Translations under genes and position numbers: made by a program
The notes under the pieces: generated by a model
Databases searched by the model: none
What the model saw: the letters and a program-made list of their open reading frames with translations, nothing else
Told to the model about the DNA's origin: nothing
IMG/VR virus record: IMGVR_UViG_2690316161_000025
Direction: 5' to 3' (one strand)
Source: a virus
Lineage: Duplodnaviria; Heunggongvirae; Uroviricota; Caudoviricetes
Length of the DNA: 44,064 nucleotides
Shown here: one piece after another, positions 1 to 10,201 of the stretch
How the letters are laid out: every line of letters starts with the position of its first letter
Position numbering within the stretch: position 1 is the first letter of the stretch

Positions 1-228
1 ATGTGTTCCAACGAAAAGGCCCGTGATTGGCATCGTGCGGATGTGATTGCGGGACTTAAGAAAAGAAAGCTCTCTTTATCAGCTCTTTCCCGGCAGTTTG
101 GTTATGCGCCAACTACATTAGCTAATGCGCTAGAACGACACTGGCCAAAGGGTGAGCAGATTATTGCTAACGCCTTAGAAACTAAACCGGAAGTAATCTG
201 GCCTAGCCGATATCAAGCAGGTGAGTAA
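1..228 (+). CDS. ner: Ner, small DNA-binding negative regulator of early transcription (75 aa)
   Basis: [40 protein letters not shown]...; sits immediately upstream of the transposase gene as in Mu. Confidence 0.9.
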
Positions 229-229
229 C

Positions 230-2221
230 ATGGAACTTTGGGTATCACCGAAAGAGTGTGCGAATCTTCCTGGTTTGCCGAAAACATCGGCTGGTGTGAT
301 TTATGTTGCTAAAAAGCAAGGATGGCAAAACCGCACTAGAGCAGGTGTCAAAGGTGGTAAAGCAATTGAATACAATGCGAACTCTTTACCTGTTGAAGCG
401 AAAGCGGCGTTATTGCTGAGACAAGGAGAGATTGAAACAAGCCTGGGGTATTTTGAAATCGCCCGCCCCACGCTGGAAGCCCATGATTATGATCGTGAGG
501 CACTGTGGAGCAAATGGGATAACGCCAGCGATTCCCAGCGCAGACTTGCTGAAAAATGGTTGCCTGCGGTTCAGGCTGCAGACGAAATGCTGAACCAGGG
601 GATTTCAACGAAAACGGCTTTTGCGACCGTTGCAGGGCATTACCAGGTCAGCGCATCCACTTTGCGGGACAAGTATTACCAGGTACAGAAGTTTGCGAAG
701 CCTGACTGGGCGGCTGCACTTGTTGATGGACGTGGAGCATCCCGTCGCAATGTTCACAAAAGTGAATTTGACGAGGATGCCTGGCAGTTTCTGATTGCAG
801 ATTATCTGCGACCGGAAAAACCCGCTTTCCGCAAATGTTATGAGCGTCTGGAACTGGCAGCCCGCGAGCATGGCTGGAGTATTCCCTCCCGTGCCACGGC
901 CTTTCGCCGGATTCAGCAACTGGACGAGGCAATGGTTGTTGCCTGTCGTGAAGGTGAACATGCACTGATGCATCTGATACCGGCACAGCAGCGAACTGTG
1001 GAACACCTGGACGCCATGCAGTGGATCAACGGCGACGGTTATCTGCATAACGTCTTTGTACGCTGGTTTAACGGTGATGTGATCCGTCCGAAAACATGGT
1101 TCTGGCAGGATGTGAAAACCCGAAAAATTCTGGGCTGGCGCTGCGATGTGAGCGAGAACATTGATTCAATTCGCCTCTCGTTCATGGATGTTGTGACTCG
1201 CTACGGTATCCCGGAGGATTTTCACATCACCATTGATAACACCCGTGGTGCTGCGAATAAATGGCTGACGGGAGGCGCGCCCAATCGCTACCGCTTTAAG
1301 GTAAAAGAGGACGATCCAAAAGGGCTGTTTTTACTGATGGGTGCGAAAATGCACTGGACAAGCGTTGTTGCTGGTAAAGGCTGGGGCCAGGCAAAACCTG
1401 TTGAACGTGCTTTCGGTGTTGGTGGGCTTGAGGAATACGTTGATAAGCATCCGGCACTGGCTGGCGCATATACGGGGCCTAATCCGCAGGCAAAACCTGA
1501 TAACTATGGCGACCGCGCTGTTGATGCAGAGCTGTTTCTGAAAACCCTTGCCGAAGGTGTGGCGATGTTCAATGCCAGAACAGGCCGTGAAACAGAAATG
1601 TGCGGAGGCAAACTTTCGTTTGATGACGTTTTTGAGCGTGAATACGCCAGAACGATTGTGCGTAAGCCTACCGAAGAGCAAAAACGGATGCTGTTACTGC
1701 CTGCCGAGGCGGTGAACGTTTCACGCAAAGGCGAGTTTACGCTTAAAGTTGGCGGCTCCCTTAAAGGCGCGAAAAACGTTTATTACAACATGGCGTTAAT
1801 GAATGCCGGAGTGAAAAAAGTTGTGGTCAGATTTGATCCACAGCAGTTACACAGCACGGTTTATTGCTACACCCTGGACGGTCGGTTTATCTGTGAAGCG
1901 GAATGTCTGGCACCTGTTGCGTTTAATGATGCTGCGGCAGGTCGTGAATATCGCCGCCGCCAGAAACAACTGAAATCTGCGACGAAAGCAGCGATTAAGG
2001 CACAGAAACAAATGGATGCACTGGAAGTGGCAGAGCTGCTGCCGCAGATAGCCGAACCTGAAGCACCAGAATCACGAATTGTCGGCATTTTCCGGCCTTC
2101 CGGTAATACGGAACGAGTGAAGAATCAGGAGCGTGATGATGAATACGAAACTGAGCGTGATGAATATCTGAATCATTCGCTGGATATTCTGGAACAGAAC
2201 AGACGTAAAAAAGCCATTTAA
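230..2221 (+). CDS. A: MuA DDE transposase (663 aa)
   Basis: ATG at 230 one base after ner stop, SD aggtgag upstream; 663-aa product [17 protein letters not shown]...; size and position match MuA. Confidence 0.95.
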
Positions 2222-2259
2222 TTAACGTTTAAACAAAATTTAATTACGAGGTTATTCAG

Positions 2260-3198
2260 ATGAATATTTCCGATATTCGCGCAGGACTGCGCACGCTTGT
2301 AGAAAATGAAGAAACCACCTTTAAACAAATTGCTCTTGAGAGCGGACTTTCTACCGGAACTATCAGTAGTTTTATCAATGATAAGTACAACGGGGATAAC
2401 GAGCGTGTTTCACAAATGCTGCAACGCTGGCTGGAAAAATATCATGCAGTTGCAGAACTACCTGAACCGCCCCGCTTTGTGGAAACGCAGACGGTAAAAC
2501 AAATCTGGACAAGTATGCGTTTTGCCAGCCTGACTGAAAGTATTGCTGTTGTATGTGGCAATCCTGGTGTGGGCAAAACCGAAGCGGCCCGTGAATATCG
2601 CCGCACCAATAACAATGTCTGGATGATCACCATTACGCCATCCTGTGCCAGCGTTCTGGAATGTCTTACTGAACTGGCGTTTGAGCTGGGAATGAATGAC
2701 GCACCACGCCGTAAAGGGCCGCTCTCCCGCGCCCTGCGACGTCGCCTTGAAGGTACACAGGGGCTGGTTATCATCGACGAAGCTGATCATCTTGGTGCCG
2801 AAGTTCTGGAAGAACTCCGCCTGTTACAGGAATCAACCCGTATTGGCCTTGTGCTGATGGGAAATCACCGGGTTTATTCAAATATGACGGGGGGTAACAG
2901 AACGGTTGAATTTGCCCGTCTGTTTTCCCGTATTGCAAAGCGCACTGCAATTAATAAAACCAAAAAAGCCGATGTAAAAGCTATTGCGGATGCCTGGCAG
3001 ATTAACGGCGAAAAAGAACTGGAGTTATTACAGCAGATTGCGCAGAAACCAGGTGCGCTTCGCATTCTGAATCATTCACTTCGCCTTGCAGCCATGACGG
3101 CTCACGGTAAAGGTGAGCGTGTTAACGAAGATTATCTGCGTCAGGCTTTCCGTGAATTAGACCTGGACGTTGATATTTCAACGCTGCTGCGTAATTAA
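2260..3198 (+). CDS. B: MuB ATP-dependent target DNA activator (AAA+ ATPase, 312 aa)
   Basis: 312-aa ORF with Walker A GNPGVGKT, directly downstream of A; SD acgagg upstream. Confidence 0.95.
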   Translation: MNISDIRAGLRTLVENEETTFKQIALESGLSTGTISSFINDKYNGDNERVSQMLQRWLEKYHAVAELPEPPRFVETQTVKQIWTSMRFASLTESIAVVCGNPGVGKTEAAREYRRTNNNVWMITITPSCASVLECLTELAFELGMNDAPRRKGPLSRALRRRLEGTQGLVIIDEADHLGAEVLEELRLLQESTRIGLVLMGNHRVYSNMTGGNRTVEFARLFSRIAKRTAINKTKKADVKAIADAWQINGEKELELLQQIAQKPGALRILNHSLRLAAMTAHGKGERVNEDYLRQAFRELDLDVDISTLLRN

Positions 3199-3213
3199 GA
3201 AGGAGAAGAAATT

Positions 3214-3441
3214 ATGATGGCCCGAAATATAAAAATGGCAACGGATGCGCAGAACTGGTTACAGGCGCGCGGGAGTCATGTAAATGAATCATATCTCGGC
3301 GTGGCGCGTCCGATTCTTGAAATCACTTACCCACCGGTGGAACTGGTAAAAAACGCGGTCAGAATTATGGAGCATAAATCCGGAGTTGCCCGTTCTGTAT
3401 GGACGGCCCGTCTTAATGGTTGCCAGATTATCTGGAGATAA
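3214..3441 (+). CDS. kil: Kil, host killing/cell-division inhibitor (74-75 aa; alternative ATG at 3217)
   Basis: First small ORF after B, SD aggagaag upstream; position matches Mu kil. Confidence 0.6.
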
Positions 3442-3443
3442 CG

Positions 3444-3674
3444 ATGTGTATTAAAGCTGAAAAATATATTGAATGGGTTAAACACTGTCAGTGCCACGGG
3501 GTGCCGCTGACGACATATAAATGCCCCGGATGTGGTGAACAGATTATGACGCAATGCTCACCCGAAAAGGAAATTCGGGATTCCATGACATGTTGTCCGT
3601 GGTGCAGCGCAGTTTTCTTTAAACAGGTAAAAGGCGCGAAGGTAAAAGCCAGCGCGGTTATTCAGAATCAATAA
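3444..3674 (+). CDS. Early-region small Cys-rich (zinc-ribbon-like) protein, unknown function
   Basis: ATG 3444 with SD ggag; product has CQCHG...CPGCGEQ...CCPWC cysteine pairs; ORF track gives longer 3420 start overlapping kil. Confidence 0.5.
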   Translation: MCIKAEKYIEWVKHCQCHGVPLTTYKCPGCGEQIMTQCSPEKEIRDSMTCCPWCSAVFFKQVKGAKVKASAVIQNQ

Positions 3675-3685
3675 GGTGAAACAAA

Positions 3686-3949
3686 ATGGCAAAAGTAATT
3701 ATTGAAATTAAAAATACAGTATCTGGAATTAAAGGACGGAATTTGCGCACCAGCATTGCGGTGGACGGTAGTGCGGAACTGGACGGTGATGAGGGTACAC
3801 TTGCTGGCATGGTGGCGTTACTGGTGCTTAATAAAAGCCAGAAAGTAATTAATGAGTCAGCCCATGAAGCTATTGAGATTTTGAAAAACGATGGTGTCAT
3901 CACCGGTGGCCGTGTCACTGAAATGGCTGTTGAAAAAACATGCCACTGA
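3686..3949 (+). CDS. Early-region hypothetical protein (87 aa)
   Basis: ORF with SD aaggtga upstream of ATG 3686; tightly packed in the Mu semi-essential early operon. Confidence 0.5.
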   Translation: MAKVIIEIKNTVSGIKGRNLRTSIAVDGSAELDGDEGTLAGMVALLVLNKSQKVINESAHEAIEILKNDGVITGGRVTEMAVEKTCH

Positions 3950-4383
3950 AAGGAACGCTGACAATGAACGTCAAAATCCGAAATGAAATTCAGGCATTAA
4001 TCCGAATTCAGGAACGCAATAACAACGGTGGTGAATTACGCGAGTTTATTTGCGCCCGGAAAGTTGATGGTTATGGTGAAAAGACTTACCTAATTACTTT
4101 CGACCATTACAGCATCTGTGCGCGTTATTGTGGCGAAAGCATATCCCGCGCCATTGCGTCTGGCGATGCGTTTAACGTGGATTTATGGGAGTACGTCATG
4201 GACCGTGAATACATCTGTGTATCAGACCCGAAAGCCCGTGATATGTGGCAGCGTATCTGGCGCGATTACCGGTTAATGGCAAAAGGCTGGGCGCGCTGCT
4301 GTTATTCCTCGCTTGCCCTGAAAGCAGTTCAGTTATCGCTGCGGCATATTCCGGCATCACTGCGCGAGCCTCTGTTGTACTGA
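3940..4383 (+). CDS. Early-region hypothetical protein (147 aa; alternative start ATG 3964 with SD aaggaa)
   Basis: ORF in operon context; start ambiguous between 3940 and 3964. Confidence 0.5.
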   Translation: MPLKGTLTMNVKIRNEIQALIRIQERNNNGGELREFICARKVDGYGEKTYLITFDHYSICARYCGESISRAIASGDAFNVDLWEYVMDREYICVSDPKARDMWQRIWRDYRLMAKGWARCCYSSLALKAVQLSLRHIPASLREPLLY

Positions 4384-4683
4384 ATGGTGGCTGACATGAA
4401 GTGTAATCGTAAGCGCTGGTCACGCGAAGACCGGGAATTTATCGAAGCCAACGTCGGGAAAATGACCGTTGAAGAAATGGCGGAAAAACTGAAAGTCGCC
4501 ACAACCGCCCTCCGGGCACATGCCAGAAGGCACGGAATATCATTGTGTATATACCGAATCAGTGAGCACGACAAATATTTGTGTCGTGAACTTTATAAAG
4601 AAGGGCTGGATATTCATGTCATTGCCCGAAAGATGGAATTAAGCAATCGTGCTGTATCCAGCATTGTATACAGCGGATATTAA
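4384..4683 (+). CDS. Early-region hypothetical protein (99 aa; alternative start 4396)
   Basis: ORF abutting previous stop (TGAATG); weak SD. Confidence 0.4.
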   Translation: MVADMKCNRKRWSREDREFIEANVGKMTVEEMAEKLKVATTALRAHARRHGISLCIYRISEHDKYLCRELYKEGLDIHVIARKMELSNRAVSSIVYSGY

Positions 4684-4702
4684 TTAACAGGAGCTTTAAT
4701 TT

Positions 4703-5227
4703 ATGGCTAAACCAGCAAAACGCATCAAAAGTGCCGCAGCGGCTTATGTGCCACAAAACCGCGATGCGGTGATTACCGATATTAAACGCATCGGGGATTT
4801 ACAGCGCGAAGCATCACGTCTGGAAACGGAAATGAATGATGCCATCGCGGAAATTACGGAGAAATTTGCGGCCCGGATTGCACCGATTAAAACCGATATT
4901 GAAACCCTTTCAAAAGGCGTTCAGGGATGGTGTGAAGCGAACCGCGACGAACTGACGAACGGCGGCAAAGTGAAGACGGCAAATCTTGTCACCGGCGATG
5001 TGTCATGGCGTCAACGCCCGCCATCAGTGAGTATTCGCGGCGTGGATGCCGTAATGGAAACGCTGGAGCGTCTTGGCCTGCAACGCTTTATTCGCACGAA
5101 GCAGGAAATCAACAAGGAGGCGATTTTACTGGAACCAAAAGCCGTCGCAGGTGTTGCCGGAATTACGGTTAAATCGGGAATTGAAGATTTTTCCATTATT
5201 CCGTTTGAACAGGAAGCAGGTATTTAA
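4703..5227 (+). CDS. gam: Gam, host-nuclease inhibitor / DNA-end binding protein (174 aa)
   Basis: ORF MAKPAKRIKSAAAAYVPQNRDAVITDIKRIGDLQREASRLE..., SD aggag upstream; matches Mu Gam. Confidence 0.9.
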   Translation: MAKPAKRIKSAAAAYVPQNRDAVITDIKRIGDLQREASRLETEMNDAIAEITEKFAARIAPIKTDIETLSKGVQGWCEANRDELTNGGKVKTANLVTGDVSWRQRPPSVSIRGVDAVMETLERLGLQRFIRTKQEINKEAILLEPKAVAGVAGITVKSGIEDFSIIPFEQEAGI

Positions 5228-5325
5228 TACCACCATTAATATTTAATTAATTCACATTCTTTTAATTATGGCGCGATGCGTCAGGGGATTGCTCGCGCCT
5301 GAAACAGATTACTGAGGAATAAAAC

Positions 5326-5856
5326 ATGGTTGATGCAAAAATTCTGAATGGTGTCAGCACATTATTACGGGCTTACGGACGCCTGACCTGCGGGGTTCTG
5401 GCTGAAAAAATGCAGATGCCATCCTCCGCAATGGTGTACTTCCTGCGTGATGCGGTTGATGCCGGAATGCTGACTGAACTTAATGGTTTTTACGACGTAC
5501 CGCGTCCCCGTACAGAGCAGCCTGTAAGACGAAACGCAACTGAGCAGTCTGCTGTTGATGATGCCGCGTGGTGTTCCTTCCGCCGCCCATTGCCCTGGCT
5601 GGAAGGCAATGCCATTCCGGCACTGGCAAAAGAATTTGCAACAGGCGTGCTGACCTGTGAATCCGTTCACATCGTTGCAGAAGTGGACAACAGAATGTGC
5701 GAACAGGGAATGCCCCGTTTTGTGATGGCTTATATCGATATCCGGCTGGGGCGTTTTATTTGCAGTTCCAGCGCCTGGAATATCACCGACCATGTACTGC
5801 GTTATCTCATTCTTGATTGTTCTCCGGCTCCCGCAGCGGTGCAGGAGGTGGCGTGA
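5326..5856 (+). CDS. Early-region hypothetical protein (176 aa)
   Basis: ORF with SD gagga upstream; operon context. Confidence 0.55.
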   Translation: MVDAKILNGVSTLLRAYGRLTCGVLAEKMQMPSSAMVYFLRDAVDAGMLTELNGFYDVPRPRTEQPVRRNATEQSAVDDAAWCSFRRPLPWLEGNAIPALAKEFATGVLTCESVHIVAEVDNRMCEQGMPRFVMAYIDIRLGRFICSSSAWNITDHVLRYLILDCSPAPAAVQEVA

Positions 5857-6386
5857 TGTTTTTTAAAACGTCAAATCCCACAGCACTGCTGGCATGGGAC
5901 CAGTTTATGGCGGACTGCCTGAAACTACGCGAAGAAGCCCGCCATCTTGATAAGGTTCTGGACTGTGGTTGCCGGTCAGTATTCAGTACAGGTATTGGTG
6001 GGCGTCATTTTCATGGTGTGAATTTTCCGGGGAATGAGCGCCCCTTCTCGCGGGAGCTGTGGACCGTACAACGGCCCGCATCAGGTAACAGTTGCAGGCC
6101 CAGAACTTCGTGGATACCTGCTCATCTCAGGGGGCAGGCAAGAGAGCTGGCGAAAATATGGCAGGAGAATATTCCGGTCACTTACGCCCGCACAGACGCT
6201 CTTTTACCCGCACTGGGACTGGATTTCAGCGCAACAATATTCGGGCCGCTCCAGTGGTTCCGTGTTGGTGATGTGATTTACGTCATGACGGGGATGACAC
6301 CCGCGCAAGGCCGCATGACTGAAATCCTTTCTGACGAATTTATCCGGGCGCAAAAACAGGCGGAGGTAACTAATGGAAAACAGTGA
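5856..6386 (+). CDS. Early-region hypothetical protein (about 176 aa from ATG 5856)
   Basis: ATG 5856 overlaps the upstream stop (TGATG) and has a strong SD gcaggaggtg; ORF track lists a longer 5817 start. Confidence 0.5.
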   Translation: MFFKTSNPTALLAWDQFMADCLKLREEARHLDKVLDCGCRSVFSTGIGGRHFHGVNFPGNERPFSRELWTVQRPASGNSCRPRTSWIPAHLRGQARELAKIWQENIPVTYARTDALLPALGLDFSATIFGPLQWFRVGDVIYVMTGMTPAQGRMTEILSDEFIRAQKQAEVTNGKQ

Positions 6387-6555
6387 AACATCGTATTCGT
6401 GGCTGGGGAAATTTACCACGGTGAAACAGGAATGCCCGACCTGCGGTAATGAATCCCCTGAATATCTGAAAGAGTGCCCTCATTGTGGCGGGCAGAAATG
6501 CAACCACTGTGATATGGGCGATGACACGGCGTGCATGAATTGTGAAGGTGAGTGA
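6373..6555 (+). CDS. Small zinc-ribbon protein (60 aa, CxxC x2 plus CxxC)
   Basis: ORF with CPTCGN...CPHCGG...CNHC...CMNC; SD ggagg upstream. Confidence 0.45.
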   Translation: MENSETSYSWLGKFTTVKQECPTCGNESPEYLKECPHCGGQKCNHCDMGDDTACMNCEGE

Positions 6556-6556
6556 T

Positions 6557-6865
6557 ATGAATAATGGTGTATTTTCAAAATCAGAAGAGCTTGCCGCCCT
6601 GCTGATTGCCGGTGGTTTGCCGAAAAAAGAAGTGCATGACTTTGTGAATTTTGTATATGAGACGTCTCATGAAAAAGCTATTGATGAGGTCATGGCGTAC
6701 CGGTTTGGCATTATTGCTGAGTCACTGAGTCCTCACTGGATTATTGAAAATCTCCGCGCTATTGCTGATGGCAACGATAAATCAGCAGCCGTTGCTGCAC
6801 TGGATGTGTTACGGCAAATGAGTCTGAAATTTTATCCTGAATTTATTCTGAGGGCCGCAAAATGA
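6557..6865 (+). CDS. Early-region hypothetical protein (102 aa)
   Basis: ATG 6557 just after upstream stop, SD gaaggtgag. Confidence 0.5.
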   Translation: MNNGVFSKSEELAALLIAGGLPKKEVHDFVNFVYETSHEKAIDEVMAYRFGIIAESLSPHWIIENLRAIADGNDKSAAVAALDVLRQMSLKFYPEFILRAAK

Positions 6866-7164
6866 ACAATGAAGATAAATTTACTCCCCTTAATATTGAT
6901 AACGTCATGGCTGAAAAAGGGATGCTGGAACGTGTTCGCGCTATCGTTGAATATGGTATTAAGCATAATCTCACCGCCAGAGAAGTCCGTGACATTATCA
7001 ACCGCGAAATGAATCGTCTGGAAACAGTAGTGGCACTGCAAAATGAAACAGCCCGCGAGGAGTACATCCGCCGCAGGCTGGGGTTATCAGACCAGGATAT
7101 TGTTACTGACGCTCATGTGTTTGAGGCTTTTGAGATCCGTCAGCATCTGGGTCTAACGAACTGA
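6862..7164 (+). CDS. Early-region hypothetical protein (100 aa)
   Basis: ATGA start-stop overlap with the upstream gene (translational coupling). Confidence 0.5.
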   Translation: MNNEDKFTPLNIDNVMAEKGMLERVRAIVEYGIKHNLTAREVRDIINREMNRLETVVALQNETAREEYIRRRLGLSDQDIVTDAHVFEAFEIRQHLGLTN

Positions 7165-7369
7165 TAATGTCTTCCATGATCTTTGACAGTTGCATGTTTT
7201 CGCGGCGGCTTGTTCTTATTGCAGGCGCATCTTTTAAAATCTCTGCTGAAGAGCTGAAAATGGCCTGGCCCTCTTCTGCGGTGATGATCGCCTTCTTCAC
7301 CAGAAGGCGCACCAGTGCTGATGCAATCGCATAACCTGCAACATCATAAGGTTGTACATTATTTTCCAT
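7103..7369 (-). CDS. Candidate antisense-oriented small protein (88 aa) in the gap between early genes and gemA
   Basis: Minus-strand ORF MENNVQPYDVAGYAIASALVRLLVKK... with good SD (gagagga, 5 nt spacer) before ATG at 7369; fills a 275-bp region with no plus-strand ORF. Confidence 0.3.
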   Translation of the reverse strand: MENNVQPYDVAGYAIASALVRLLVKKAIITAEEGQAIFSSSAEILKDAPAIRTSRRENMQLSKIMEDIISSLDPDADGSQKPQTHERQ

Positions 7370-7438
7370 AAAATCCTCTCTGATTGATGTGTAAATTCAG
7401 GCGGTGTTGCAGCACCGCCTCTTTCCGGAGGTACGATC

Positions 7439-7990
7439 ATGAATCGCACATCCCTGATTAAATTAATCCATGTCGCCCGTCGGGAGCTACAACTCGACGA
7501 CGACACTTACCGAGCTTTTCTGATGCAGAAAACGGGCAAAATCAGTTGCCGCGAGCTGACGGTTACGCAACTGGAACAGGTGCTCGATGCCATGAAAGAA
7601 CGCGGCTTTAAGAAGCTGAATAAACATCCACGTCGCCGCTTTAAGGGGCATGTCACGCCCCGCGAGAAGGTATACAAAGTCTGGCAGCAGATGGCAGAAG
7701 ACGGTTTTATTACCGATGGCGGTGATGTGGCGCTGGATAAATATGTTCAGCGCCTGACGGCGAAACGTAATGGCGGACAGGGTGTTTCCACGCTGGCGTG
7801 GTGTCATGGCGACACCCTGTTGATTGTTCTCGAAACTCTCAAGCAGTGGCATATCCGCTGTATTCGTGAAGCCTTTTCCCGTCACGGGCTTCCGTTGCCA
7901 GTCAGTCCGTCCGGGCGTGAACTGCGCGGCTATGATGCCATGACGGCGGCTTATGCCCATGCCAGAAAGACACGGAGGATGGCACAATGA
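7439..7990 (+). CDS. gemA: GemA (183 aa)
   Basis: 183-aa ORF immediately upstream of and overlapping mor (ATGA), SD ggagg; matches Mu GemA position and size. Confidence 0.8.
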   Translation: MNRTSLIKLIHVARRELQLDDDTYRAFLMQKTGKISCRELTVTQLEQVLDAMKERGFKKLNKHPRRRFKGHVTPREKVYKVWQQMAEDGFITDGGDVALDKYVQRLTAKRNGGQGVSTLAWCHGDTLLIVLETLKQWHIRCIREAFSRHGLPLPVSPSGRELRGYDAMTAAYAHARKTRRMAQ

Positions 7991-8376
7991 CGGAAGATTT
8001 ATTTGGTGATTTGCAGGATGACACCATCCTGGCACATCTTGACAATCCCGCAGAGGATACGTCACGCTTTCCGGCACTGCTGGCGGAGCTGAACGATTTA
8101 CTGCGCGGGGAATTGTCCCGGCTGGGTGTTGATCCTGCCCATTCACTGGAGATTGTTGTGGCTATCTGTAAGCATCTGGGCGGCGGTCAGGTCTACATTC
8201 CACGCGGTCAGGTTCTGGACTCGCTGATTCGGGATTTGCGTATCTGGAATGATTTTAACGGTCGCAACGTCAGCGAACTGACCACCCGTTATGGTGTCAC
8301 TTTCAATACGGTTTACAAGGCCATTCGCCGGATGCGACGGCTGAAATACCGCCAGTACCAGCCCTCACTTCTGTAA
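7987..8376 (+). CDS. mor: Mor, middle operon regulator (129 aa)
   Basis: 129-aa ORF; C-terminal region similar to the C protein encoded at 9169 (Mor/C family). Confidence 0.9.
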   Translation: MTEDLFGDLQDDTILAHLDNPAEDTSRFPALLAELNDLLRGELSRLGVDPAHSLEIVVAICKHLGGGQVYIPRGQVLDSLIRDLRIWNDFNGRNVSELTTRYGVTFNTVYKAIRRMRRLKYRQYQPSLL

Positions 8377-8383
8377 ACAGTAA

Positions 8384-8406
8384 AGCCGGTTAATCCGGCT
8401 TTTTTT
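8384..8406 (+). terminator. Rho-independent terminator after mor (end of early transcript)
   Basis: Hairpin agccggttaatccggct followed by tttttt. Confidence 0.6.
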
Positions 8407-8453
8407 ACGTCCTCAATATCCTGTGATGAATAACCGTACCGGGGGAAATCATC

Positions 8454-8672
8454 ATGGGTAAAGGCTGGAATGCATCCTTTCATCTTGGCAGACGTGAGCG
8501 GCTGCGTCAGGAGGTTTTGCACCGTGTCGCCGGTGGGCCACGGCCTGCGCCCCGCGACTATACCGGTCATGATGGCACCCACGGCAGTTATTACATGAAA
8601 GGCTGGCAGTCAGTTGATATGCCGGAAATTCTTCATCATTGCCTGCTTTACAGGGAGAAACATTATGTCTGA
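8454..8672 (+). CDS. Middle-operon hypothetical protein (72 aa)
   Basis: ORF with SD gggggaaa; lies between mor terminator and C. Confidence 0.4.
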   Translation: MGKGWNASFHLGRRERLRQEVLHRVAGGPRPAPRDYTGHDGTHGSYYMKGWQSVDMPEILHHCLLYREKHYV

Positions 8673-9027
8673 GCGTTCTGCTCGTCAGTGGCCTGATTTT
8701 TTATCGGTGGTATTACTGGCGCTGTTATTGTGGATAAGTCTGTTTTGTGGCTGGCGCGCGCTGATGTTTTGCTGTGCCTCGGTTTTCAGTGTTGCTTTAT
8801 GTGTTGCCGCTGATTGTCTGGATGCGCTGATAATGAGCTGCCGGGTGCCTGAACATTTTGCCCGGTTCGTCTGGCCTCTGACCTGGCTGGGGAGTCTGTC
8901 CGGGCTGGGATTAGCCGTGATGGCAACGTCTCAACTGAAAACGGGTCCTGAGCATGTCATCTGGGCGCTGGCCGGATTGCTGACGTTCTGGCTCTCCTTT
9001 CGTTTTCGCGCTCGTCTGTTCGGGTAA
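8665..9027 (+). CDS. Middle-operon predicted multi-pass membrane protein (120 aa from ATG 8665)
   Basis: SD gggag upstream of ATG 8665; hydrophobic segments LSVVLLALLLWISLFCGW, VFSVALCVAA, LGLAVMATS. Confidence 0.45.
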   Translation: MSERSARQWPDFLSVVLLALLLWISLFCGWRALMFCCASVFSVALCVAADCLDALIMSCRVPEHFARFVWPLTWLGSLSGLGLAVMATSQLKTGPEHVIWALAGLLTFWLSFRFRARLFG

Positions 9028-9036
9028 AGGGGCACC

Positions 9037-9156
9037 ATGTACAGAAAATTCAGTGATGAATGTTTCGGGCCGTCCACGCTGATGAGTGCGATAAAAGTGA
9101 TTGCCCTTGTGGTTCTGATAACCATCAGTGCCGTGGTGTATCTTTCTGTCTGTTAA
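9037..9156 (+). CDS. Candidate 39-aa single-pass membrane peptide (not in ORF track)
   Basis: ATG 9037 with SD aagggg; MYRKFSDECFGPSTLMSAIKVIALVVLITISAVVYLSVC then TAA at 9154-9156. Confidence 0.3.
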   Translation: MYRKFSDECFGPSTLMSAIKVIALVVLITISAVVYLSVC

Positions 9157-9168
9157 CCGGGGGAAAAT

Positions 9169-9591
9169 ATGCAGCATGATTTATTTGAACACGATCCGGC
9201 AATTCGCCAGTTAATCGGACATATTGATAACATCCCGGCCCCGGAACTGGAATCACGCTGGCCCCGTTCGGTGGTTGATCTGATTGATGTTCTGGAAAAC
9301 GAACTGAAACGCCAGAACGTCAGCAATCCCCGTGAGCTTGCCCGTAAACAGGCCGTTGCCCTGTCCTGTTTTCTGGGCGGGCGGCAGTTTTACATCCCCT
9401 GCGGCGATACGATCCTGACCGCGTTACGCGACGATTTGCTTTACTGCCAGTTCAATGGTTGTAACATGGAAGAACTGCGTCGCCAGTATCGCCTGTCCCA
9501 GCCGCAGATCTACCAGATTATTGCCCGCCAGAGAAAGCTGCATACACGACGTCATCAGCCTGATCTGTTCTCACCTGAAAGCCAGAAATAA
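9169..9591 (+). CDS. C: C, late-gene transcriptional activator (140 aa)
   Basis: 140-aa ORF MQHDLFEHDPAIRQLIGHIDN...; paralogous to Mor; last gene of the middle operon. Confidence 0.9.
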   Translation: MQHDLFEHDPAIRQLIGHIDNIPAPELESRWPRSVVDLIDVLENELKRQNVSNPRELARKQAVALSCFLGGRQFYIPCGDTILTALRDDLLYCQFNGCNMEELRRQYRLSQPQIYQIIARQRKLHTRRHQPDLFSPESQK

Positions 9592-9614
9592 CCGGCATCC
9601 TGCCGGTTATTTCC
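9591..9614 (+). terminator. Probable terminator after C
   Basis: Hairpin accggca-tcc-tgccggt followed by T-rich tatttcc. Confidence 0.45.
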
Positions 9615-9682
9615 TGTCACCATAATCCCGCACCTGCCATCTGATTTTTTAGACTGCCATCAGAGCATTTTTTCAGGGAAGC
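9615..9682 (+). promoter_or_regulatory. Plys late promoter region (C-dependent), approximate
   Basis: Intergenic between C terminator and lys; contains tcccgcacct motif (9626-9635) shared with the I upstream region. Confidence 0.4.
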
Positions 9683-10201
9683 ATGATGGCGGGGATACCC
9701 AAAAAACTGAAAGCCGCACTGCTGGCGGCAACGATTGCCGGTGGCGGTGTGGGTGGTTATCAGGAAATGACCCGTCAGTCTCTGATCCATCTGGAAAATA
9801 TCGCTTATATGCCTTACCGCGATATTGCCGGTGTGCTTACGGTCTGTGTGGGACATACCGGGCCGGATATCGAAATGCGCCGTTACAGCCATGCGGAGTG
9901 TATGGCTCTTCTCGACGGTGATTTAAAACCGGTTTATGCGGCAATCGATCGTCTTGTCAGGGTGCCGCTGACGCCATATCAGAAAACGGCGCTGGCAACG
10001 TTTATTTTCAACACCGGTGTTACCGCATTCAGTAAATCAACGCTGCTGAAAAAACTCAATGCCGGTGATTACGCCGGAGCGCGTGACCAGATGGCCCGCT
10101 GGGTGTTTGCCGCAGGCCATAAATGGAAAGGACTGATGAACCGTCGCGAAGTGGAAATGGCTATCTGGAATATCAGGGGGGCGGATGACCTTCGCCAGTA
10201 A
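9683..10201 (+). CDS. lys: Endolysin with N-terminal signal-anchor-release (SAR) domain
   Basis: 172-aa ORF; N-terminal weakly hydrophobic Gly/Ala-rich segment LKAALLAATIAGGGVGGY, then lysozyme-like domain. Confidence 0.85.
   Translation: MMAGIPKKLKAALLAATIAGGGVGGYQEMTRQSLIHLENIAYMPYRDIAGVLTVCVGHTGPDIEMRRYSHAECMALLDGDLKPVYAAIDRLVRVPLTPYQKTALATFIFNTGVTAFSKSTLLKKLNAGDYAGARDQMARWVFAAGHKWKGLMNRREVEMAIWNIRGADDLRQ

Follow-up and report, generated by a model that had tools for sequence, protein, structure and literature searches.

Results

Gene 20 lies between gene 19 and C in a Mu-type middle operon

The window, by which we mean the whole stretch of 44,064 nucleotides analysed here, comes from a virus of the Caudoviricetes (IMG/VR record IMGVR_UViG_2690316161_000025). 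On its plus strand, an ATG at position 9037 opens a reading frame of 39 codons which closes with a TAA at 9154-9156 and specifies the peptide MYRKFSDECFGPSTLMSAIKVIALVVLITISAVVYLSVC. Sequence comparison identifies this frame (9037-9156) as the ortholog of bacteriophage Mu gene 20, which encodes Mup20 or gp20 (Mu_20, AAF01097.1, NP_050624, UniProt VG20_BPMU, PHROG 19823) and whose product is listed in UniProt as 'Uncharacterized protein gp20'. The region from 8300 to 9700 shares 98.6% DNA identity with Mu (AF083977) and 98.7% with D108, and positions 1-9000 are 97.5% identical to Mu, starting from Mu coordinate 1099. These alignments show the window to be a Mu-type phage or prophage with 97-98% identity to Mu. 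At the protein level (tblastn), the encoded peptide is 95-100% identical to the annotated gene 20 products of Mu, D108 and the Yersinia vB_YpM phages and 90% identical to that of SfMu. It differs from Mu gp20 at two of 39 residues (M16I and S17N) and is the same as the peptide of four plaque-forming Yersinia Mu-like phages, vB_YpM_3/5/6/23. An hmmscan search aligned residues 1-39 with the 39-position profile of PHROG 19823 (E=1.8e-29), a PHROG of unknown function, while gp20 had no match in Pfam, NCBIfam or PADLOC.

The first-pass annotation had described the ORF as unlisted and as the kind of small membrane peptide that is frequently missed. The former holds for the ORF track used in that annotation and for E. 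coli prophages annotated by NCBI PGAP, but not for the records of Mu, D108 and SfMu: the curated Mu record places Mu_20 at the colinear position and with an RBS, and gene 20 is annotated in D108 and in SfMu (SfMu_20) as well. The gene is probably genuine, as had been supposed, but it was not overlooked, having been catalogued since the Mu genome sequence, annotated as Mu gene 20 and tested experimentally. PGAP leaves it uncalled in the four Mu-type E. coli prophages that we inspected, even where the sequence equals that of the window, and a gap of about 140 nt then precedes C; the homolog of the SE11-type clade described below is, by contrast, called. Since PGAP misses gene 20 in nearly all E. 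coli Mu-type prophages, the general point about missed micro-proteins holds.

The gene order is colinear with Mu_18-Mu_19-Mu_20-Mu_21. According to the Mu annotation, the Mor-dependent middle promoter Pm transcribes 18-19-20-C, in which gene 20 is the third cistron and the last small one before C. Pm maps to 8369-8439 on the plus strand by offset from the Mu record (promoter 9163-9233; Mu coordinate minus 794 gives the window position), a hairpin of the early-transcript terminator is located at 8382-8402, and no sigma-70 consensus promoter was detected on either strand within 8300-9750. Rfam gave a hit to sroD at 8349-8407 that stayed below threshold (E=0.46; 20 bits against a gathering threshold of 50); it covers the mor-Pm terminator hairpin and is almost certainly due to chance. 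The operon begins with gene 18 (gp18; 8454-8672, plus strand; Mu_18 annotation; PHROG 2121), followed by gene 19 (8665-9027, plus strand; Mu_19 annotation; PHROG 4975), an optional upstream neighbour of gene 20 which encodes a membrane protein of 120 aa. The preceding gene had been taken to encode a predicted membrane protein, in agreement with the four transmembrane domains (TMDs) given for gp19 in the curated Mu record; comparison of gp19 with Pfam, NCBIfam and PADLOC returned sub-threshold noise only (DUF4190, E=0.51; 2TM_IV, E=0.034). Downstream, the gene for the late transcription activator C, a member of the Mor family (9169-9591, plus strand; Pfam PF08765 Mor, E=5.7e-33; Mu_21 annotation), starts 12 nt after the stop of gene 20, which bears out the position just upstream of C in the middle operon assigned to the ORF by the first-pass annotation. 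The Shine-Dalgarno (SD) sequence of C, CGGGGG (9158-9163, plus strand; -8.6 kcal/mol), starts 2 nt after the gene 20 stop and is given as an RBS in the Mu record.

Two further observations concern the neighbourhood. Genes 19, 20 and C (8665-9591) share one reading frame and are separated by TAA plus 9 nt and TAA plus 12 nt, such that readthrough of the stops would fuse all three; a same-frame arrangement of this kind is expected by chance in about 1 of 9 cases. In addition, a gene of 186 codons is found between mor and gene 18 in SE11-type prophages, in E. coli WS1933D and in Yersinia vB_YpM_6 (L004 363-923; L007 740-1300; L073 1037-1597). PGAP names its product glycoside hydrolase family 108 (GH108) in two E. 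coli records, and it is hypothetical in the Yersinia record; the gene is absent from the window and from Mu. If the 186-aa protein is a muramidase, it would be a second peptidoglycan hydrolase, encoded in the middle operon, besides the late SAR endolysin.

gp20 is predicted to be a tail-anchored peptide with a conserved N-terminal motif

Gene 20 is preceded by the SD sequence AAGGGG (9027-9032, plus strand), located 4 nt before the ATG, the first base of which is the last base of the gene 19 stop TAA (9025-9027). Its predicted duplex with the 3' end of 16S rRNA has an energy of -7.0 kcal/mol, a value reached by about 5% of plus-strand ATG/GTG codons in the window. The C-terminal 20-24 residues of the peptide are strongly hydrophobic, with a maximum Kyte-Doolittle 19-residue mean (KD19) of 2.77, and a C-terminal transmembrane helix, or tail anchor, is predicted for residues 15-38 (9079-9150, plus strand), beyond which lies Cys39 alone. 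A single-sequence AlphaFold2 model contains a short N-terminal turn and one helix spanning residues 12-38, with a pLDDT of 94-96 over the last 20 residues. These data agree with the earlier description of a 39-aa ORF with an aagggg SD and one predicted transmembrane helix. Phobius and TMHMM, as cited in the curated Mu record, predict one transmembrane domain with the N-terminus in and the C-terminus out, and the positions of R3, K4 and K20 on the N-terminal side fit the positive-inside rule for an N-in orientation. With a single TMD at the extreme C-terminus and a cytosolic N-terminal part, gp20 is thus predicted to belong to the tail-anchored proteins.

Codons 1-11 (9037-9069, plus strand) specify the predicted cytoplasmic N-terminal motif MYRKFSDECFG, which is conserved between the two clades described in the next section and unaltered in all common alleles. 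Columns M1, Y2, R3, F5, S6, E8, C9 and G11 are invariant in both clades. The DNA of codons 4-8 (9047-9060) can also be drawn as a mini-hairpin, AUUCA-GUGA-UGAAU, that has the form AUUCA-GUAA-UGAAU in the SE11-type clade and so has a GNRA loop there too. The G-to-A change in this loop retains a stop in the +2 frame (TGA/TAA), at which the gene-18-like ORF of SfMu-type and Yersinia-type phages ends. We dropped the notion of nucleotide-level constraint on codons 1-11, where Nei-Gojobori counting gave 4.8 synonymous sites with one synonymous and three nonsynonymous changes and no significant deficit.

Gene 20 occurs in two clades of Mu-like phages

Homologs of gp20 fall into two clades. The Mu-type clade comprises Mu, D108, SfMu, the Yersinia vB_YpM phages and many prophages of E. 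coli and Shigella, and the SE11-type clade consists of prophages of E. coli and Salmonella enterica serovar Adelaide. A word-indexed search of 5.8 billion protein clusters with Mu-type and SE11-type queries found no homologs outside these two clades, nor did an index-free HMMER scan of 1.84 billion representatives, IMG/VR and JGI metagenomes reveal a third clade, and gene 20 was absent from 185,579 GTDB species-representative genomes. The SE11-type peptide, MYRRFSNECSGMATLLMVMKGITVIALLAVVTGICLLVFR (WP_254901872.1; E. coli SE11 ECSE_RS29585), is encoded between a gene-19-like gene for a protein with four TMDs and a C homolog of 71-75% amino-acid identity. A GGAGG SD precedes its ORF by 4 nt, and its start codon shares bases with the stop of the gene before it (ATGA); the SE11-type operon carries a GH108 hydrolase gene. 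The peptide resembles gp20 in its slot, its length of 40-41 codons, the motif MYR(K/R)FS(D/N)EC and a single C-terminal transmembrane helix, but its amino-acid identity is 35-38%, the sequence of the helix is unrelated and it ends in Arg, not Cys. The similarity of the DNA is unevenly distributed: over 9040-9069, 26 of 30 nt are identical between the clades, compared with about 50% in the remainder of the gene, which includes the helix. The SE11-type helix is as hydrophobic as that of the window (KD19 2.75) despite differences at 48% of the nucleotide sites that follow codon 11.

Conservation of the frame in Mu-like phages, which the first-pass annotation had named as a check on the ORF, was found in every Mu-type genome examined and extends to the diverged SE11-type clade. 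It does not reach more distant Mu-like phages: where IMG/VR and GTDB loci encode a C homolog of 54-73% identity (Kluyvera, Erwinia and other Enterobacteriaceae), no gene 20 was found upstream of C, the place being taken by an unrelated secreted protein of 119-153 aa or by nothing.

Upstream modules are exchanged at the gene 20 start codon while the linkage to C is kept

Gene 20 lies directly upstream of every Mu-type or SE11-type C gene that we found, at 20/20 IMG/VR loci and in 44 complete E. coli genomes, and this pairing holds with or without gene 19 and includes the plaque-forming Yersinia phages. What precedes gene 20 varies among four contexts: gene 19, as in Mu; the SfMu type, in which a gene-18-like ORF overlaps the start of gene 20 by 20 nt and the start codon is GTG; class B, which has the GH108 gene, includes the Yersinia phages and shows the same 20-nt ORF overlap as SfMu but an ATG start; and the SE11 arrangement. 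SD-like sites are present in three of the four (-7.0 kcal/mol in Mu, -6.2 in the SfMu type and -9.5 in the SE11 type), whereas in class B, the SD reaches only -2.9 kcal/mol and an overlapping upstream ORF is found instead. Across alleles, the start codon is always ATG or GTG.

Three different upstream modules join the conserved 20-C block at the start codon of gene 20, which therefore marks mosaic breakpoints. In 24 of the 44 E. coli genomes, the alignment with the window starts no more than 3 nt from the first codon of gene 20 (9034-9038; query 85-89). Upstream genes have been exchanged at this point, and recombination has consequently not separated gene 20 from C. Gene 19 is replaced, and hence missing upstream of gene 20, in 24/44 gene-20-bearing E. 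coli genomes, from which we conclude that gene 20 is independent of gp19.

Sequence comparison favours a genuine but weakly constrained micro-protein gene

A first alternative to a functional peptide is that the frame is open by chance in the leader of C, that it gives rise to no functional product and that its conservation reflects recent ancestry and linkage to C. Several findings could be read in this way. Within the Mu-type clade, gene 20 shows one synonymous and five nonsynonymous segregating changes, compared with 17 and seven in C of the same genomes (Fisher p=0.026), a near-neutral pattern. A frameshift allele circulates in six complete E. coli genomes of the E148 type and is thus tolerated; it has a 2-nt deletion in codon 35 (equivalent to window 9139-9141), by which the last five residues change from YLSVC to SFCLLTGGKYAA and the ORF is extended 11 nt into C. 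Moreover, the gene is dispensable in Mu (PMC9239132), its phyletic range is tiny, with two clades among 5.8 billion clusters, and antisense frame -2 opposite gene 20 is likewise stop-free in all alleles.

Other evidence argues for a coding function. Among the forward frames, that of gene 20 alone stays open in all 14 DNA alleles. Shuffling the nucleotides of the ORF gave sequences that were both open and reached a KD19 of at least 2.0 in only 0.3% of cases, and when the Mu allele was subjected to simulated neutral divergence to a difference of 48%, an open ORF with a KD19 of at least 2.0 was kept in 3% of trials, whereas the SE11-type clade has kept the ORF, SD, length, motif and helix together. 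Codon position 2 is T at 58-64% in both clades. Between Mu and SE11, gene 20 has a dN of 0.51 and a dS of 1.08, which corresponds to a dN/dS of about 0.5; the respective values are 0.14 and 1.2 for C and 0.09 and 1.8 for gene 18, and gene 19 has a dN of 0.54 with saturated dS. Translation signals have been rebuilt in the four upstream contexts, with ATG or GTG as the only starts, and neither the motif nor any part of the helix is lost in the frameshift allele. We therefore consider a chance frame improbable and gene 20 to be, on sequence grounds, a genuine but weakly constrained micro-protein gene.

The distribution of changes points to what selection retains. Common Mu-type alleles vary at residues 16, 17, 23 and 37 only, and the sole indel seen in the SE11-type clade is an in-frame duplication of 6 nt. 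Taken together, these patterns suggest that selection maintains the ORF with its start signals, the N-terminal motif and a hydrophobic anchor, and hardly the sequence of that anchor or the last residues. The frameshift allele also has 11 substitutions, which cluster in codons 12-29 with none in codons 2-11. One protein of 83 aa (P0005) has a chimeric look: the frameshift gp20 allele runs into the beginning of C, after which the alternative frame is repeated. It probably arose through an artefact of assembly or duplication in a single metagenome.

Other frames at the locus were rejected. An alternative-frame ORF of 39 codons (9060-9179, plus strand), which overlaps gene 20 and the start of C, is attributed to chance, with a TAA in the Mu, D108 and SfMu alleles. 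Antisense ORFs at 8911-9177 (minus strand, 88 aa) and 8931-9125 (minus strand, 64 aa) have boundaries and starts that are not conserved and no promoter-like site.

A predicted hairpin pairs the end of gene 20 with the start of C

The stop of gene 20 and the AUG of C are 12 nt apart in Mu-type alleles and 10 nt apart in SE11. Local folding predicts an RNA hairpin at 9132-9178 (plus strand), a hypothetical coupling element in which the SD and AUG of C are paired to gene 20 codons 33-38, a textbook arrangement for translational coupling. Its energy is -15.2 kcal/mol in the window (z -1.7) and -17.6 kcal/mol in the SfMu allele (z -3.1). This geometry raises a second alternative, namely that gene 20 is a cis-acting ORF whose product is irrelevant, and that ribosomes arriving at its stop melt the hairpin and thereby tie the output of toxic C to upstream translation. 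In favour of such an ORF, gene 20 ends so near the C start in both clades and always adjoins C while the preceding genes swap, with breakpoints no more than 3 nt from its start; all four one-sided stem substitutions among alleles (4/4) keep the pairing; and the peptide sequence is nearly unconstrained within the clade. Tight control would also be sensible given that overexpression of MuC is described as lethal (PMC12867686).

The structural support is, however, incomplete. The stem shows no compensatory double changes, and the corresponding shuffle control had no power. In a 270-nt context, the RBS of C in the window pairs elsewhere than in the 9132-9178 hairpin, and SE11 forms a different hairpin that covers part of the SD only and leaves the AUG free. 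The 186-nt gene 20 region as a whole is no more structured than its shuffles (z -0.46 in the window and -0.14 in SE11), and the accessibility of the C RBS, 0.36, is the seventh lowest among 31 genes of this phage. Rfam searches of 9037-9156 returned no family match on either strand. In addition, C has its own strong SD, a cis-acting ORF has no need for a transmembrane helix and an N-terminal motif that are kept across 48% DNA divergence, and the C homologs of other Mu-like phages lack an upstream coupled ORF. The hairpin over the C RBS hints at translational coupling, which is possible, but beyond the geometry of the predicted fold we found no support for it. Of the three alternatives considered in this study, the cis-acting ORF is the most probable, followed by the chance frame and then by the holin pair discussed below, yet we still regard it as unlikely that coupling accounts for gene 20 without its product.

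It is also conceivable that gene 20 has two roles, in which its translation would gate toxic C via the hairpin and the middle mRNA would become anchored to the membrane as the nascent peptide is inserted co-translationally. We consider this combination rather unlikely as well. Gating of C via the hairpin, if true, would explain why every upstream gene has been swapped without splitting gene 20 from C, and the two-role reading would represent a translational checkpoint, not described before, at the passage of Mu from middle to late development.

Published experiments argue against a role of gp20 as a holin, an antiholin or a toxin

Only four coding sequences of Mu, 19, 20, 23 and 25, encode proteins with TMDs (Chamblee et al., 2022, mBio, PMC9239132). 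According to the account given in PMC9239132, Samanta et al. (2021) proposed that gp19 and gp20 are a holin-antiholin pair. In this third alternative, the two proteins would be the missing pair of Mu, with gp20 regulating or forming the lesion that releases the endolysin. The proposal draws on the adjacency of a protein with four TMDs and one with a single TMD near the endolysin gene, which is reminiscent of holin and antiholin topology classes. The position of the genes speaks against it: holins are expected to be expressed late and co-transcribed with the endolysin, whereas gene 20 lies upstream of C in the middle operon and is set apart from lys by C itself and, in the Mu record, by a terminator and the C-dependent promoter Plys. 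Gene 19 is furthermore missing in 24 of the 44 E. coli prophages that keep gene 20.

The published experiments were carried out with Mu gp20, which is 95% identical to the peptide of the window. Arabinose-induced (pBAD) expression of gp19, gp20 or both, followed by dinitrophenol (DNP), left viability unimpaired, whereas the same induction and DNP treatment killed cells expressing lambda S105 or phage 21 S68 (PMC9239132). A construct with genes 18-21 deleted (gp22-gp25) served as a lysis-competent construct, and lysis by Mu was found to need no holin and to use the releasin gp25 (PMC9239132). In the summary given by PMC9239132, which cites Mathee & Howe (1993), gene 20 of Mu is dispensable, non-toxic on expression, neither holin nor antiholin and not needed for lysis. 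The holin-antiholin proposal has thus been refuted experimentally for Mu, and we give it hardly any credence for the window. We also rejected a type I toxin-like peptide of the Hok/TisB/Ibs kind, for which there was no Rfam match and no minus-strand promoter-like site, and the published pBAD expression was non-toxic.

Discussion

Our comparative analysis adds four points to what is known of this gene: the SE11-type sister clade, the pattern of selection, the finding that gene 20 is strictly linked to C and that breakpoints fall at its start codon, and the hairpin prediction. We think it likely that the window carries an ortholog of Mu gene 20 which belongs to the Pm operon and is translated into a tail-anchored, motif-bearing peptide of the inner membrane, and that it is a dispensable accessory gene. 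Following the annotation, gene 20 is transcribed from the Mor-dependent Pm as the third cistron of 18-19-20-C. Translation from its own SD would then yield a peptide of 39 residues that is inserted into the inner membrane by its tail anchor, with a cytoplasmic N-terminus of 14-19 residues that bears the sole sequence-conserved part, MYR(K/R)FS(D/N)EC-G, and one membrane-spanning helix which reaches to residue 38 and leaves only Cys39 outside (N-in, C-out). The pattern of conservation suggests that the anchor is interchangeable and that the N-terminal motif, held at the membrane, is the functional determinant. We believe that the anchored motif may act at the inner face of the membrane on a host or phage partner between middle and late expression. 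With its stop 12 nt from the C AUG, gene 20 when translated probably also supplies C with ribosomes, which we would regard as a secondary effect. Counting against the explanation as a whole are the near-neutral evolution in the Mu-type clade, the frameshift allele in six genomes and the absence of gene 20 upstream of the C homologs of 54-73% identity.

As a discovery, the ORF is of small value, given that the gene has been annotated for decades and the sole functional proposal for it has been refuted experimentally. The comparative data nevertheless point to where gp20 should be mutated, namely in the motif and in the hydrophobicity of the anchor and not in the sequence of the anchor or the C-terminal residues. 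Moreover, the invariable linkage of gene 20 to C, together with the predicted hairpin over the C start, provides a testable idea on the control of an activator that is lethal when overproduced.

Compared with known systems, gp20 resembles the holins and antiholins of phages lambda (S105/S107) and 21 (S68/S71) in being a small phage membrane protein encoded near the endolysin gene, but it differs from them in its middle instead of late promoter, in not being lethal upon depolarisation and in not being required for lysis. Translationally coupled upstream cistrons are short ORFs whose stops lie a few nucleotides ahead of the following start, with a hairpin masking the SD and AUG of the next gene, and in the com-mom operon of Mu translation is likewise controlled by a hairpin. 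Gene 20 is similar to these in that it ends just before the start of C, whose SD and AUG are covered by a predicted hairpin; unlike in these systems, the hairpin shows no covariation, is not conserved in SE11 and is not unusually occluding. The closest counterparts remain gp20 of Mu, gene 20 of D108 and SfMu_20, which likewise have 39 codons and occupy the slot between gene 19 and C in the Pm middle operon; from Mu gp20 there is no difference of substance, and the ORF of the window is an allelic variant of it.
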